Made by a program: the position numbers and the translations under genes. A stretch of DNA of 64,000 nt, from positions 864,001-928,000 of the forward strand of contig OY970340.1 of the NCBI GenBank assembly GCA_963717465.1, read 5' to 3'. This document shows positions 2 through 8,778 of the stretch, piece after piece. Within the stretch, counting starts at the first letter, position 1. Every line of letters starts with the position of its first letter. The notes under the pieces were generated by a model. That model was not told where the DNA came from. It worked only from the letters and a program-made list of their open reading frames with translations, and searched no databases. The stretch is from Candidatus Bathyarchaeota archaeon. Its GTDB lineage: Archaea; Thermoproteota; Bathyarchaeia; Bathyarchaeales; Bathycorpusculaceae.

Positions 2-379
2 TTGCACCTGATTTCTCCAGAGACTCTTCGTATGCAAAAAAGTGTTTTGAAAACGATAAAAACGAAGATAAATGTTGTAGAAGACGCAAATCTTGAAAAA
101 ATAATCCAAGAAATAGACGTCTTGTATGTAACAAGAATTCAAAAGGAACGTTTCCCTGATCAAGCTGAATACGCGAAGCTAAAAGGCACCTACAAAATAG
201 ATAAAAATACAATTTTGAACGCAAAGAAAGGCATGATTATTCTTCATCCTCTTCCAAGAATAGATGAAATAGCTCCAGAAGTTGATAAAACGCCGCATGC
301 ACGGTATTTTCAGCAAGCATGGAACGGACTTGTAGTCAGAATGGCACTGCTAACGTTGGTTTTAAGCGAAACCAAATAG
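2..379 (+). CDS. pyrB: aspartate carbamoyltransferase catalytic subunit, C-terminal part (window edge)
   Basis: DVLYVTRIQKERF, HPLPR and YFQQA motifs. Confidence 0.95.
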   Translation: MHLISPETLRMQKSVLKTIKTKINVVEDANLEKIIQEIDVLYVTRIQKERFPDQAEYAKLKGTYKIDKNTILNAKKGMIILHPLPRIDEIAPEVDKTPHARYFQQAWNGLVVRMALLTLVLSETK

Positions 380-382
380 AAC

Positions 383-2590
383 TTAGGCTGAATCAAACCT
401 GTCAAATTTTGCTATCGAGTTTATGGATCCACATGTGGGGCACTTGTGAAGATTTCCAAACCAGCTTTTCTTGCAGTTGTCACAGTAACTAATTACTCGA
501 TTGTATGTGAAGAAATTAAGTGTTTGATTCTCTATTAATTGCTTTGTAAAACTCAAAAGCATTTCCGGGGTGTATTCAGCCTCATGCAAATCTATTATGC
601 CGAGAAAACAGCTTTTGAAGCCTTTTTGCTTCTTTCCAATCTTTATATCTTCAGGGGCAAATCCAAAATTCTCACTGTTTGCCTGCAAATGTATAGTTGT
701 TGAGTAGTAAGGCTTCTCTCTTGTTCCAGAAAACTTGATTTTAGCTATCCCGTACTTCTCGATGTCCAGTCGCGCAAGTCTTTCAGATGCTTCAGGACTG
801 TAAATTATTGCAGGATACAGACGTCTTCCAAGTCGTCTTCCGAGTATCACCTTGAAAGCTTGAATTTCCTGTATCACTTCTTCGAAAAACTTGCTGTTTT
901 CTTCAACTCTGCCTGCTTTTTCAGTGAAAGATTCTGCTGCTTCATTTAAACCTGCAAAATTTATTAATCGCAAGCAATTTTCAAGCCTAAAGTACGCGTC
1001 ACCCTTAGCCTTTTTTAGAAGAAATGGTAACGTATTATTGCCATATTTTTTTATAGCGTTATATTTAATATCTAAGGCACGAGCAGCTAATTCGCACCGA
1101 TCTCTTAAAATCTCAAAAAACTTGTTCTTTTCCATATTGCTTTCTTGAACAATCCGCGGAATGTTTATGGTAACATACCCAAGACACCCCGTACGGAGCG
1201 TATCTGTTTCCCAGTCATCAGTTAAGTCTGGTGAAAAACTAGCTCCTGTGGCAGAAAAAGAATTGTCTTCAACTTCTTTTTGAATCATACATGCAAAGTT
1301 AGGAATTCCGTTTCTTGTAGCCAGTAGATGTGCTTTCAAAAGCACTTTCTTTGCTTTCTCATCAGCTAAAACGTTTTTGTCTATTTTTAAGACTAGATTA
1401 GGGCTAAATAATGGTTTGATTGCGCTTTCTTCCATCATTACCTCAACGGTTAAATCAGCCAGTAACACGGTTTCTGAAGCAAAATCGCTATATTTCCCAT
1501 TAATTTTTCCTCCTGGGCCGATGGCTGGTTTTTCCCCTACCACTTTTGGAATTGAAAGCTCTAAGCCTAGCGTTACTTGGACGTGTTTGTTTAAGTTGAG
1601 CAGGAATAACCGCAGACTTTCCTTAATCCTTTGACGATCAAGACCTTTTGCGTAAGGTGCAAGAAACACAGTGAAGTAATTGCATGTTTGCATGCGATTT
1701 ACTTCTTTACTTGAATGCAAAAGTACATTAAAGATGGTGATTAATGCCGATTCGAAGTTGTCTGGTGGGCGCGTTGAAAATTCATGCGGGTCATCAAAAA
1801 TGATGCCGTTTTGGAAGAAAAACCGCATGTCGTGGATTACTTCGTTTGGTTTTAAAATCCACGTGCCTAAACCGTCTATGTGAATTGCGCCAGAGAGGTG
1901 TGCATCAGCTATGTCTCTTGGGAAAATGTTGAGAAGCGTGTATTCACCTATGACTGTTTGGCCTGCTTTTGCCAGAATGCTTGTTGAATCTTGTATTTTC
2001 TGTTTCGATATTATCAATAGAGTTACTTCGTGAATTGGCATGCCTACTCTGGTTAGTTTGTTGCGGTAATCTTCATAGCCCTTTTCGACTAGTATCCCAT
2101 TTACAACTTCTCTGATTAGTGAAGCGGTCAGGTACTTGGTTTTGGACTTTAGCAAGCGTTTCTCAGCTTCTTTAGCTGCTTTTTGGGCTAACTCAACGGG
2201 TACTCTTGCTTCAGCTATAAGCGAATTCGCAATTTTGTTTGCGTCAAATTCTTCAAGCGTTAAATGCGAGGTTCTTACAAGCATTCCTCGTGGTTTAACA
2301 GCGTTTTTCTCAATTCTATCAGAAACATCTAGAACCATTTTGCCAAGATCTGTCAAGAAATACTTCTTTGATTCAACATCAGCTTCAACCAAGTTAGCCT
2401 TTAAAAGGAACTTTAGGTGATAAGCAAATCTTCCAGCATCTCGGCTGGGATTCATCTTAAGCGCATTCATCAATTCCGTGTATGAGAGAGCGCTTTTATC
2501 GAATAATAAGTTGAGAATTTGAAGCCTGAGGGGTGAAGAAACGGCTTTTAGAACCTTCACGCCGCGCGTTCGATGAGGTGGATTTACCAT
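383..2590 (-). CDS. ArsR-type HTH + ATP-cone + class III ribonucleotide reductase (NrdD)-like barrel + Zn ribbon; predicted catalytically inactive
   Basis: N-terminal LKAVSSPLRLQIL...YHLKFL HTH; VRTS..EEFDANKI cone; AHLSGAIHI, FLAPY, LRTG..YVTINIPR; CDNC/CPTC; ends RFDSA instead of RxxGY. Confidence 0.85.
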   Translation of the reverse strand: MVNPPHRTRGVKVLKAVSSPLRLQILNLLFDKSALSYTELMNALKMNPSRDAGRFAYHLKFLLKANLVEADVESKKYFLTDLGKMVLDVSDRIEKNAVKPRGMLVRTSHLTLEEFDANKIANSLIAEARVPVELAQKAAKEAEKRLLKSKTKYLTASLIREVVNGILVEKGYEDYRNKLTRVGMPIHEVTLLIISKQKIQDSTSILAKAGQTVIGEYTLLNIFPRDIADAHLSGAIHIDGLGTWILKPNEVIHDMRFFFQNGIIFDDPHEFSTRPPDNFESALITIFNVLLHSSKEVNRMQTCNYFTVFLAPYAKGLDRQRIKESLRLFLLNLNKHVQVTLGLELSIPKVVGEKPAIGPGGKINGKYSDFASETVLLADLTVEVMMEESAIKPLFSPNLVLKIDKNVLADEKAKKVLLKAHLLATRNGIPNFACMIQKEVEDNSFSATGASFSPDLTDDWETDTLRTGCLGYVTINIPRIVQESNMEKNKFFEILRDRCELAARALDIKYNAIKKYGNNTLPFLLKKAKGDAYFRLENCLRLINFAGLNEAAESFTEKAGRVEENSKFFEEVIQEIQAFKVILGRRLGRRLYPAIIYSPEASERLARLDIEKYGIAKIKFSGTREKPYYSTTIHLQANSENFGFAPEDIKIGKKQKGFKSCFLGIIDLHEAEYTPEMLLSFTKQLIENQTLNFFTYNRVISYCDNCKKSWFGNLHKCPTCGSINSIAKFDRFDSA

Positions 2591-2720
2591 TCCATGCTTC
2601 CCCCACTCTAAATTTAGTGCTTTACTTATTATTAATTGCAGAGTTTAAACTTAGCTAAGGCTTTATTTATGCAAGCGCTTAAAAGGGGCTGTTTTATGTC
2701 GCTATTTTAGGGTACTTTCC

Positions 2721-2866: not shown

Positions 2867-3448
2867 ATGTCGAAGAAACCGCAATCCAAAGATGAAGCAT
2901 TCGAAGCCTTAGACTTCATCGTAAACGTACTTAAAGAGCACGAAAAAGACCTAGACCGACTAATAAACGAATTAGGAACAGTAACAGAACGTTTGGGCGA
3001 AACCGGTGAAGTAAGCAAAAAAGTGGAGAAAGTAGAGGAAAAAATAAACGGCTTACAGAATGAAGTAACAAACCTGATTAGCTATTTATCTACTTCACCT
3101 AAAGAAACCCCTACTCCATCAACCATTAGGACTCCAAAACTCGGTTCAGCAAATGCAACTTCGAACACTTTTACCCCTGCTGTACCTTCAGTGCAAAGCG
3201 GTCCTCCTGTAATTCTACGGTGCAAACAATGGGAAGATTTCCAAAATTTGGCGTCACAATCGCAAACAATATCATTCATGTATAAAGAAGCCGAAAAAGC
3301 GTTCCAAGTTGATGCAATAAAGGGCAATCAAATAGCCTCTTACAGCGGCGAGTTACCAAAGTTAGTTTCGCTTTTAAGAATGTGGCTATCAAAGCAGTTA
3401 GATGTTCCAGAAACCAGGATTTTAGAAGGCATTTTGGCCATCGGTTAG
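2867..3448 (+). CDS. hypothetical protein, N-terminal coiled coil, P/T linker, small C-terminal domain
   Basis: 193-aa ORF with heptad pattern. Confidence 0.8.
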   Translation: MSKKPQSKDEAFEALDFIVNVLKEHEKDLDRLINELGTVTERLGETGEVSKKVEKVEEKINGLQNEVTNLISYLSTSPKETPTPSTIRTPKLGSANATSNTFTPAVPSVQSGPPVILRCKQWEDFQNLASQSQTISFMYKEAEKAFQVDAIKGNQIASYSGELPKLVSLLRMWLSKQLDVPETRILEGILAIG

Positions 3449-6742: not shown

Positions 6743-7499
6743 ATGGCAAAATCGAACATGGATGAGCGCCCATTATTGTGGATTGGGTGTGCCTATCGAA
6801 ACGTTTTACCTGATCTTCACAAAGAGATAACCCGCTTGTTAAATCGTCTTGGAGTCCAGTTTGAAACGTTGGACAAAGAAGAATGTTGCGGTTTCCCATT
6901 GATCCTCTCTGGAAACAATGATGAGGCCAAAAGGTTTGCAGAAAGAAACATACGCCAAATTGGTGATAAAAAGAGGGTTGTGACAGCATGTCCAGCTTGT
7001 TACAGGGCTTTTAATGAATTTTACCCAAATCTTCTCAAAAGTAAGCTTCCGTTTCGGAGTCTCTCATATAACACAGTATTACTGCGAACTCATAGATCGA
7101 GGCATTTTAAAGGCATCAATGCTAAAGCCTTTGAAAATTAAGGTTATGTATCATGATCCATGCGAACTGGGTAGGCATTCAAAGATTTTTGATGAGCCTC
7201 GAAGAGTGCTGAAGATGATTCCGAATCTATCTTTGTATGAGCCAAGGTTTAGCCGAGAATTGTCAACTTGTTGCGGTGGAGGAGGGCTGGTTTCAGCATA
7301 TTTCCCAACACTTTCTGTAAATATTGCTAGCCGTAAAATATTAGAAGAAGACCATGTTCCAAATGATGTTTGGGCAATTGTCACGGAGTGCCCTCAATGC
7401 GTAAGTAATCTTCAACGGGCATGGAGCAAGGATGGTACCCCATTGGGCATTAAGGTGTATAATTTGGCTAAAATTTTGAACATGTCATTAGGTGATTAG
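6743..7499 (+). CDS. CCG-domain Fe-S protein (LutA/GlcF-like), split by one frameshift near 7060
   Basis: ECCG, CPAC, YHDPC, CCGGGG, CPQC across two overlapping ORFs. Confidence 0.8.
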
Positions 7500-8778
7500 A
7501 GTGACTGAAGACGCAAAAAAGGGAATAGATGAAACTTTTGCTCGCTACCGGGATGAACTTTGGAACGCAATGGAAGATGAAACTATTCACTTAGCTTTGT
7601 CAAGGGCTGTTGAATCCTTCAGGCGTAACAGAGATGAAGCCCTGAAGCTTTACCCGAAAGTTAAGGAAAAAGCAGCGCAATTGAGGGATATCAAAGAATA
7701 CTCATTATTGCATGTGGATGAGCTTGTAAAACAGACTAAAGACAGGATTGAAGACCTAAAAGGGCAATGTTTCATCGCTGAAAAGCCAGAGGATGCTCTG
7801 AAATACATTTCTGAAATAACAAAGGAAAAAGACATCATAGTCAAATCTAAGAGCTTCACCAGCGAAGAACTTGACTTGAACGATTTCCTTGAAAAGCGTG
7901 GCTGCGAAGTCTATGAGACAGATTTAGGAGAATTCATAATTCAACATCTCAAGAGTCGTCCAATGCACATTCTATCTCCATCAATACATGTTCCAAAGGA
8001 AAAAGTCGCCGAATTATTCTCGTCAATCATGGGAAAACCTATCAGTCCAGACATAGGCGTCCTCGTGAAGGAGGCAAGACTTTTTCTGCGCGATATCTTT
8101 TTCAAAGCAAACATTGGAATAAGCGGAGCCAACGCTATAGCCGCTGAAACAGGAACAATATTTCTAATAGAGAACGAGGGCAACGCCAGACTTACAACAG
8201 GGCTCCCAAGGAAGCACATAGCAATCGCTGGTTTAGAAAAAATCGTGCCGACCTTGCAAGATGGAATGCTTGTAGTTGAGGTTGCTTCACGATACGCCAA
8301 TTATAAAGCTCCTTCTTACGTCAGTCTTATAAGCTCTCCCAGCAAGACAGGTGACATTGAAAAACAAACAACTTACGGCGCTCATGGGCCCGAAGAACTC
8401 CACGTAATCCTATTGAACAATAACCGAACTGAAATGATTAAGAACGATACCTATAGACAGGCACTCTACTGCCTGCGATGTGGCGCTTGCTTCTACGAAT
8501 GCTCAGTATATCCTTTAACTGCAGGCTATTTCGGTCATCGTTACATGGGAGGAATAGGAGCAATTCTAACCGCATTTCTATTGGGAGGATTAAAGAACGC
8601 CGCGCCAATTGCTTATACATGCACACTTTGTGGACGATGCAAAGAAGTTTGTCCAATGAAAATAGATGTCCCAGGCATGATTCTAAAACTACGCCAAACA
8701 CTAGCAAAAGAAGATTACGTGCCCCAGCAGATAAAGCAAACAGAGAAAACAATAATTAAAGAAAGAAGCCTAAAATAA
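7492..8778 (+). CDS. lutB: lactate utilization protein B (LutB/LldF)
   Basis: VKSKS, ETDLGEFI, ENEGN, GAHGP, two 4Fe-4S motifs. Confidence 0.9.
   Translation: MIRVTEDAKKGIDETFARYRDELWNAMEDETIHLALSRAVESFRRNRDEALKLYPKVKEKAAQLRDIKEYSLLHVDELVKQTKDRIEDLKGQCFIAEKPEDALKYISEITKEKDIIVKSKSFTSEELDLNDFLEKRGCEVYETDLGEFIIQHLKSRPMHILSPSIHVPKEKVAELFSSIMGKPISPDIGVLVKEARLFLRDIFFKANIGISGANAIAAETGTIFLIENEGNARLTTGLPRKHIAIAGLEKIVPTLQDGMLVVEVASRYANYKAPSYVSLISSPSKTGDIEKQTTYGAHGPEELHVILLNNNRTEMIKNDTYRQALYCLRCGACFYECSVYPLTAGYFGHRYMGGIGAILTAFLLGGLKNAAPIAYTCTLCGRCKEVCPMKIDVPGMILKLRQTLAKEDYVPQQIKQTEKTIIKERSLK

Follow-up and report, generated by a model that had tools for sequence, protein, structure and literature searches.

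The stretch of DNA analyzed here, called the window below, comprises 64,000 nucleotides of contig OY970340.1 from a Candidatus Bathyarchaeota archaeon, whose genome assembly (GCA_963717465.1) is a single contig of 3.05 Mb and is 88% complete. Near its left end, an open reading frame (ORF) running from position 2590 to 383 on the minus strand encodes 735 amino acids (aa) with zero internal stops, in which a winged helix-turn-helix (HTH) and an ATP-cone precede the barrel and Zn ribbon of a class III (anaerobic) ribonucleotide reductase (RNR), NrdD. The barrel is catalytically dead, and the gene is probably a so far undescribed nucleotide-sensing switch for the working RNR genes. Its named close homologues come mostly from Candidatus Bathyarchaeia. 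The features of the locus are collected in Table 1; the likely B recognition element (BRE) and TATA box of the gene are similar in several close relatives.

Table 1. Features of the HTH-fused NrdD gene and its surroundings, in window coordinates
Feature	Residues	Position	Strand	Basis
Whole gene: winged helix, ATP-cone, catalytically dead class III RNR barrel, Zn ribbon	735 aa	383..2590	-	ORF, profiles, predicted model
Winged helix-turn-helix (HTH_5/DUF7347)	aa 13-92	2315..2554	-	
Putative recognition helix, DAGRFAYHLK	aa 51-60	2411..2440	-	role suggested by the fold
ATP-cone, VRTS type, like the neighboring active archaeal NrdD	aa 102-190	2021..2287	-	
NrdD-like barrel without catalytic or substrate-binding motifs	aa 200-698	497..1993	-	
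KPNEVIHD, Glu250 in the column of the conserved β-strand Cys		1829..1852	-	alignment
ATGASFS, degenerate finger loop without Cys (active enzymes: MGCR/QCCR)		1232..1252	-	alignment
Zn ribbon, C703-x2-C706 ... C717-x2-C720		431..484	-	
C-terminal KFDRFDSA, remnant of the glycyl-radical loop, retaining only Arg from RITGY		386..409	-	alignment
Likely BRE/TATA of the dead-NrdD gene, AGCTAAGTTTAAACTC on the minus strand		2641..2658	-	putative function
pyrB (aspartate carbamoyltransferase), 3' part, convergent neighbor		2..379	+	

Domain architecture and fold

The earlier note on this DNA, made from the sequence alone, had described an intact ORF with an HTH, an ATP-cone, a barrel, and a Zn ribbon, and the ORF call, the Pfam profiles, and an AlphaFold2 model all agree with it. 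Pfam assigned HTH_5 to residues 19 to 69 (DUF7347, 13 to 87), the ATP-cone to 104 to 175, and NRDD to 207 to 731, and the winged helix is linked to the cone by about 10 residues. The NCBIfam NrdD model TIGR02487 gave the protein 211 bits, below its cut-off of 326, versus 520 to 521 bits for neighboring nrdD products. The model, built from 84 sequences, reached a mean predicted local distance difference test (pLDDT) score of 87.5 and a predicted template modeling (pTM) score of 0.79, and its top Foldseek matches are class III RNRs (E value, 7e-26). The structure prediction that the note had proposed as a check thus returned the class III fold, and profiles, model, and Foldseek matches concur in the ten-stranded barrel of RNRs and glycyl-radical enzymes with a C-terminal Zn site.

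The note had also called the N-terminal domain an ArsR HTH. The ArsR-like fold held up, and HTH_5 scored above its cut-off; the metalloregulator family NF033788 reached only 31.8 bits against a cut-off of 55, and the first 100 residues contain no Cys, so a place among the ArsR/SmtB proteins did not hold up. The NrdR model TIGR00244 did not match the 735-aa protein; the conserved ATP-cone is a feature shared with that repressor.

Loss of the catalytic apparatus across the family

Catalytic motifs were defined from PMC11226230, PMC12662201, and bioRxiv 2022.04.23.489257. The glycyl-radical loop reads RxxGY, with Gly711-Tyr712 in PcNrdD, and NrdD further carries a substrate-binding NxN flap and an HxHD motif (PMC11226230), while the thiyl Cys of the finger loop sits in MGCR or MCCR (bioRxiv 2022.04.23.489257). 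Compared with canonical NrdDs, the 735-aa protein has the NxN flap and RGGQ deleted, retains only the Gln of A/SGGQ, reads HIDG for HxHD, and carries Glu250 in place of the β-strand Cys; its finger loop reads ATGASF, and the chain ends in RFDSA-stop with no RxxGY loop. Among these are the losses that had been read from the sequence at the outset, and the alignment bears them out.

The alignment held 121 HTH-fused homologues and 17 HTH-less proteins, 10 of them canonical NrdDs, drawn from 150 cluster representatives and 70 genome loci. Only closed sequences of 600 to 850 aa with a C-terminal Zn ribbon were kept, so the conservation of the Zn site is there by construction, and some rows are near-copies. 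All 10 canonical NrdDs carry a working catalytic set, versus none of the 121 fused homologues, and the loss that the earlier note had asked homologues to share is indeed common to them. The β-strand Cys and both flap Asn residues are absent from every fused protein and present in every canonical one. The second His of HxHD and the Arg of RGGQ, found in 10/10 canonical enzymes, persist in 2/121 and 4/121 fused proteins, respectively, while Gly occupies the glycyl column in 18/121 and Tyr follows in 3/121, again versus 10/10 for each. The exceptions do not add up to an active site: GC[RK] occurs in the finger window of five fused proteins, none of which has the glycyl Gly; an RxxGY-like tail occurs in two, both without a Cys; and three combine a stray Cys near the finger loop with Gly in the glycyl column, none with RxxGY.

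Distant fused members hold a recognizable ruin of the glycyl loop, such as YSRLSSKYLP..W, which the lineage of the window's gene has shortened to FDRFxS-stop, and judged from these sequences the C-terminal end reads as the decay of a formerly working glycyl-radical loop. An assembly error at the C terminus was ruled out, as none of the 120 closest proteins has RxxGY in its last 14 residues. R..G[YF] occurs anywhere in the last 40 residues of only one of these proteins, and RxxGY follows the last CxxC in 0/65 coding sequences; the end is genuine and not the read error that the note had named as a way to be wrong. A recent pseudogene was likewise ruled out by the open frame, a ratio of nonsynonymous to synonymous substitution rates (dN/dS) of about 0.1, and presence in 199/301 genomes. 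In a FastTree phylogeny, which is unrooted and has long branches, 26 canonical NrdDs and 6 HTH-less dead copies split from 62 fused proteins with a support of 99.

Two further kinds of degenerate NrdD were seen. HTH-less copies without the Cys and glycyl motifs (L071:3177-5084, P0180, P0189, P0194, P0216, P0239, and P0268) are possibly further, separate deaths of NrdD, and the one at L071 lies directly behind an HTH-fused gene. Some HTH-fused members end before the Zn ribbon (L060, L064, and L067 to L069; for example, proteins P0207, P0211, and P0270), the barrel being eroded further in some lineages, and Nanobdellota and Woesearchaeota are among the Atlas clusters of this type, with scores below 0.9.

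Selection on the putative DNA-binding and nucleotide-binding domains

We estimated dN/dS from 65 coding sequences, taken from 79 related loci plus the query, among which 14 independent close pairs were found; values were pooled over the 10 pairs with unsaturated synonymous sites, and the window's own gene is not in the pairs. The ratio was 0.028 for the winged helix, 0.031 for the cone, 0.076 for the Zn ribbon, and 0.12 for the barrel. Purifying selection is therefore strongest on the winged helix and the cone. Across 62 diverse fused proteins, conservation of 90% or more was reached in 28 of the 89 columns of the cone but in only 17 of the 499 columns of the barrel; the 10 canonical NrdDs, which are more closely related to one another, have 146 such barrel columns. 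Residues G53, F55, Y57, H58, and L59 of the putative recognition helix are each shared by 90% or more of 56 diverse homologues.

The cone is the best-conserved part of the family: R106, I120, R160, and R181 are present in 121/121 fused proteins, and the pattern VRTS...EFD..KI...LIRE is common to the fused protein and the neighboring active NrdD. Asp229, found in 120/121 fused proteins, aligns weakly with Asn167 of Streptococcus thermophilus NrdD, a core residue that touches cone-bound ATP (PMC12662201); this match is no more than a lead. Conservation of the specificity-site region is patchy, with the Lys of the PAKH loop in 65/121 fused proteins and Asp277 in the 735-aa protein. Sensing through cone and allosteric sites, as first proposed, thus finds support in the cone alone.

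Distribution and gene neighborhood

The head of the protein (aa 1 to 190) was found in 199/301 genomes of the host's class, as a single copy in 197, and in 45/48 genomes of the host's own family (f1); the search gave no match in families f56 (0/71 genomes) and f54 (0/6). Full-length matches occur in many other families of the phylum, including one with ammonia oxidizers (f12; 43/43 genomes), and one homologue cluster is named Promethearchaeota. Atlas clusters with all three domains are commonest in Bathyarchaeota, Nitrososphaerota, and Promethearchaeota. In four complete amoA-positive f12 genomes, the fused gene is the only NrdD-like sequence, and no NrdG scored above the cut-off. A glycyl-radical enzyme requires NrdG and the absence of oxygen (PMC9669993), and retention of the fused gene in these ammonia oxidizers therefore argues for a noncatalytic job.

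The host genome has working candidates for RNR elsewhere, as the note had asked: an nrdR-nrdD-nrdG cluster about 430 kb from the window's gene and a class II nrdJ at another site. The statement that no NrdG lies nearby is thus true locally, with nrdG in the distant cluster. The host's NrdR scored 154.9 bits against TIGR00244, and NrdR was above the cut-off in 31/151 genomes of the class and in 21/22 of the host's own family. The host nrdD and nrdJ carry two breaks and one break, respectively, near short homopolymer runs (C1:1297636-1300902 and 2121732-2123823); these frameshifts are likely sequencing indels, and nrdD is intact in 5/5 genus relatives.

Gene context was read at 40 loci, hand-picked to span the range of scores with a single locus per genome; kin among them are not independent. 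Seventeen adjoin an RNR gene (5 nrdD and 12 nrdJ), and two adjoin another NrdD-like ORF of doubtful state. The order regulator-glutaredoxin-nrdD was found at several further loci (L024, L026, L028, and L029). In the ammonia-oxidizer class, the fused gene stands just upstream of nrdJ in 6/6 (f80), 3/3 (f79), and 17/20 (f12) regions, and it is absent within 3 kb upstream of nrdJ in 6/6 regions from three other families of that class. In all five f72 genomes, its distance from the nrdJ start is about the length of nrdJ, and in the two that were read the genes stand tail-to-tail. Since adjacency is seen with both nrdD and nrdJ, the link between regulator and RNR outlasts a change of RNR class.

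A candidate operator at RNR promoters

Gibbs sampling was run on 55 regions upstream of nrdD and nrdJ in the class, left from 61 after 6 were dropped as near-copies or mostly coding. It returned nTACAnnaTTTTATACAnnTTTnTCTAAAA, with a log-likelihood of 575 versus 403 and 404 on shuffled input, and defined a candidate element of 29 bp with the consensus (G/C)TACA-nnnTT-TATACA-nnn-TTGTC(T/G)AAA. The element scored at least 13 bits in 19/55 regions, at genes of both RNR classes, in most cases immediately ahead of a TATA-like box, and it extends into the BRE.

We then searched the 301 genomes for the pattern with two mismatches allowed and, by our own count, obtained 44 matches, one in each of 44 genomes, versus 9 for the reversed pattern. 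Of the 37 fetched, 31 directly precede nrdD or nrdJ; the remaining 7 of the 44 are discovery sites. When all 14 discovery sites were excluded, 24 of 30 held-out matches precede an RNR gene, in seven families, three of which contributed no site to the pattern. The other six lie at a nucleotidyltransferase-domain gene (two), in unrelated DNA (three), and behind the regulator gene at a contig end (one). The protein's head is present in 41 of the 44 genomes with the element, in another the gene is truncated at the end of a contig, and in the last two no match was obtained; families f56 and f54, which lack the head, also lack the element. Thus, in a portion of the class the element is a genuine promoter feature specific to RNR genes, and the fused protein is its putative binder. 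The two nucleotidyltransferase sites belong to two genomes of f11 (L208:1637-2506 and L209:1244-2128) and lie just upstream of the gene, whose product has a short N-terminal extension that by eye resembles a ribbon-helix-helix; this gene may be an extra regulon member or a chance match.

Two other assignments were tried and rejected. The element is not an NrdR box: genomes with it mostly lack NrdR, and true NrdR boxes differ and sit after the TATA box, as in the nrdR promoters of the host's own family (L137 to L156 and G000:C1 about 1,297,420-1,297,635), where the pair of boxes follows TATA directly. Self-regulation was dropped, since no common element was evident by eye upstream of the fused gene and a TGTCAA-type palindrome (two mismatches) occurred in 2 of the 33 such regions listed. 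Most of the 21 nrdR promoters of the host's family also share TTTGTnTATTT, placed some 40 bp ahead of the BRE.

A different element, TGTCAA-N5/6-TTGACA-like, occupies a fixed position before nrdJ in f12 and f72. With two mismatches allowed, it was found at 12/32 distinct nrdJ promoters of f12 and 5/5 of f72, versus 1/145 controls, and at 0/9 nrdJ promoters of f79 and f80. Among the genome-wide matches fetched, 11/30 lie at nrdJ and most others in coding DNA, as do the extra matches in f72. We regard this element as a lead only.

A probable nucleotide-sensing regulator and its alternatives

The domain order, the family-wide loss of catalytic and substrate sites, the near single copy number, and the adjacency to both RNR classes are established, and they accord with the pseudoenzyme regulator that the note had proposed: the enzyme is dead, the loss is shared, separate RNR genes exist, and the gene keeps company with them. 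We consider it likely that the fused family is a one-component, (d)ATP-sensing transcriptional regulator of RNR genes analogous to NrdR and built from a duplicated anaerobic RNR. The dead barrel would retain the NrdD dimer and serve as scaffold, and the cone may bind ATP or dATP. In solved NrdDs, dATP and ATP shift the cones differently (PMC12662201 and PMC11226230), and by analogy such a movement could align the attached winged helices with an operator or pull them out of alignment. Because the candidate operator reaches into the BRE immediately upstream of the TATA box, the likelier sign is repression at high dATP through a block of transcription factor B (TFB) and the TATA-binding protein (TBP); activation is less likely. 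DNA and nucleotide binding by the fused protein are thus predictions from its sequence. The fuller picture, to which we give slightly better than an even chance, is of an ancient archaeal regulator, ranging from Bathyarchaeia and ammonia oxidizers as far as Asgard archaea, that arose when an entire RNR dimer became a transcription factor, with the ATP/dATP machinery of the enzyme swinging DNA-binding heads onto a BRE operator of whichever RNR (class II or III) the cell uses.

Several observations weigh against this reading. Nine of the 40 context loci adjoin neither RNR nor pyr genes. The element occurs in only 41 of the 199 genomes with the head and in 3 of the 102 without it (one having the gene cut by a contig end), the 24 held-out RNR matches, 17 of which come from two families, are not independent, and the co-absence of element and protein rests mostly on one clade. 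Held-out promoters reached 10 bits in 0/20 nrdR operons of the host's family and 2/20 further nrdJ regions (0/66 controls), and part of the element may simply be the BRE. The host genome lacks the element at nrdR, nrdJ, pyrB, and the gene itself (scores from -9 to 1), and a matrix scan of the whole genome gave only scattered matches, none at RNR or pyr genes. In ammonia oxidizers, the promoter element differs although the recognition helix differs little, and genome-wide the TGTCAA element is barely above chance, with 109 matches versus about 81 for the control. Finally, the host and its family (21/22) carry NrdR with paired NrdR boxes, and the main nrdD operon of the family appears from its promoter sequences to be under those boxes. 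The comparison with bacterial NrdR drawn in the note thus stands as a general reading, and not in the sense of a stand-in for a missing NrdR in this host. The fused protein is nonetheless strongly conserved in the host's family.

Among the alternatives, a nucleotide-sensing transcription factor for pyrB/pyrI or a wider nucleotide regulon, with adjacency to RNR genes reflecting an origin by tandem duplication, fares best and is still unlikely. It draws on the 12/40 diverse loci that adjoin pyrB or pyrI, on strong selection in f1, where NrdR already covers nrdD, and on the convergent arrangement with pyrB, which was confirmed in the window, with stop codons 3 bp apart, and recurs in 17/17 of the closest loci. 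However, pyrB is usually placed tail-to-tail, and the ancestral order looks like regulator-nrdD-pyrB (L037, L038, and L040), of which the link is possibly a leftover. An operator at pyrB was rejected, as 0/87 pyrB promoters reached 10 bits with the RNR-promoter matrix, and duplication alone leaves the adjacency after the switch from nrdD to nrdJ unexplained.

A nontranscriptional partner, that is, an inactive subunit that pairs with an active RNR as allosteric inhibitor or stabilizer or tethers it to DNA by the winged helix, seems to us quite improbable. Inactive paralogous RNR subunits exist in yeast, the complete barrel and the Zn ribbon persist, with a dN/dS of about 0.1, and the gene often stands beside nrdD; yet it is also kept in ammonia oxidizers with no active NrdD to pair with, its near-invariant residues lie in a helix at the sequence-reading position, and the RNR-promoter element tracks the gene at the family level. 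That an acquired NrdR took over the RNR role in the host's own family, leaving the protein a relic or re-assigned, is very doubtful. The missing element in the host and at 20 family nrdR promoters, the NrdR boxes there, and the C-terminal loop cut shorter than in distant homologues speak for it, whereas the tight dN/dS values derive from close relatives of the host group, the head persists in 45/48 family genomes, and TTTGTnTATTT in the nrdR promoters could be a degenerate candidate site. An enzyme with new, nonradical chemistry misread as dead is hardly credible: Thermotoga NrdD shows that the active-site Cys can occupy an unexpected position (PMC4493059), and barrel residues N476, P478, R479, R604, D609, and Y629 are near-invariant, but these are common to canonical NrdD and look structural, and the protein has lost the glycyl Gly-Tyr, both Cys sites, the NxN flap, and HxHD without gaining another set of conserved polar residues in their place.

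Relation to known systems and meaning

The regulator proposed here shares with NrdD (PF13597 and TIGR02487; structures 9D3X, 4COI, 8P23, and 1H79) the fold and the order of ATP-cone, ten-stranded barrel, and Zn ribbon, and its closest active relatives are the archaeal NrdDs often found next door. It differs in the missing glycyl Gly-Tyr, active-site Cys, and NxN flap, the broken HxHD, the subthreshold TIGR02487 score, and an extra N-terminal winged helix, and in being kept in aerobes in which no NrdG was found. ArsR/SmtB metalloregulators (NF033788 and PF01022) have metal-binding Cys/His sites; the winged-helix fold is alike, but the fused protein scores below the NF033788 cut-off and joins a head without Cys to a large sensor module. 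ThiR is an archaeal winged-helix regulator with a metabolic-enzyme domain. RbkR is another, in which the kinase is active and operators vary between lineages (PMC5397151). The fused protein resembles both in joining an HTH to an enzyme fold from the same pathway as the genes next to it, and RbkR in that the candidate elements vary across lineages, and it differs from them in sensor fold and pathway and in keeping a dead barrel of 500 residues with its allosteric domain. NrdR (TIGR00244) is the RNR-specific repressor of most bacteria and is rare in archaea (PMC9110341). The likeness lies in the ATP-cone as probable nucleotide sensor, the link to RNR genes of any class, and a candidate site in the core promoter. 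NrdR is, in contrast, about 150 aa long, versus about 735, with an N-terminal Zn ribbon and an ATP-cone; it reads DNA by the Zn ribbon where the fused protein would use the winged helix, its paired box is not the candidate element, and both proteins coexist in the host family.

No description of an HTH-NrdD fusion was found in the full-text literature searched, which leaves out most subscription journals, nor in the passages searched in PMC9669993, PMC4493059, PMC2795772, and bioRxiv 2022.04.23.489257. The fused protein would thus be a new case of an enzyme-derived one-component regulator and, if the reading is right, a clear one of an allosteric enzyme recycled as a sensor. For the tuning of RNR expression in archaea without NrdR, the family offers candidates for the protein, the ligand, and the operator that can each be tested in vitro, and it might be the main transcriptional control of deoxynucleoside triphosphate supply in these organisms. 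Databases label many fused members as active anaerobic RNRs; if the reading holds, thousands of such entries would be misannotated regulators. The correction matters for aerobic ammonia oxidizers, a group with cultured strains, which are wrongly credited with a class III enzyme.

Other observations in and near the window

The divergent neighbor of the fused gene (window 2867-3448, plus strand) encodes 193 aa with an N-terminal coiled coil and matched no Pfam or NCBIfam family above the cut-off. Farther along the plus strand, positions 6743-8778 hold, as read from the sequence, a cluster of Fe-S oxidoreductase/LUD-like genes, the first of which is split into overlapping frames (6743-7141 and 7014-7499), which suggests assembly indels. 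Just left of the window and divergent from pyrB lies a conserved small Cys-rich ORF (G000:C1 about 863,100-863,330, minus strand; 43 to 76 aa as called; PCQWL..C..GKCP.F...NGNFYC), whose promoter carries, in 19 related loci, a partly palindromic element that is likewise conserved.

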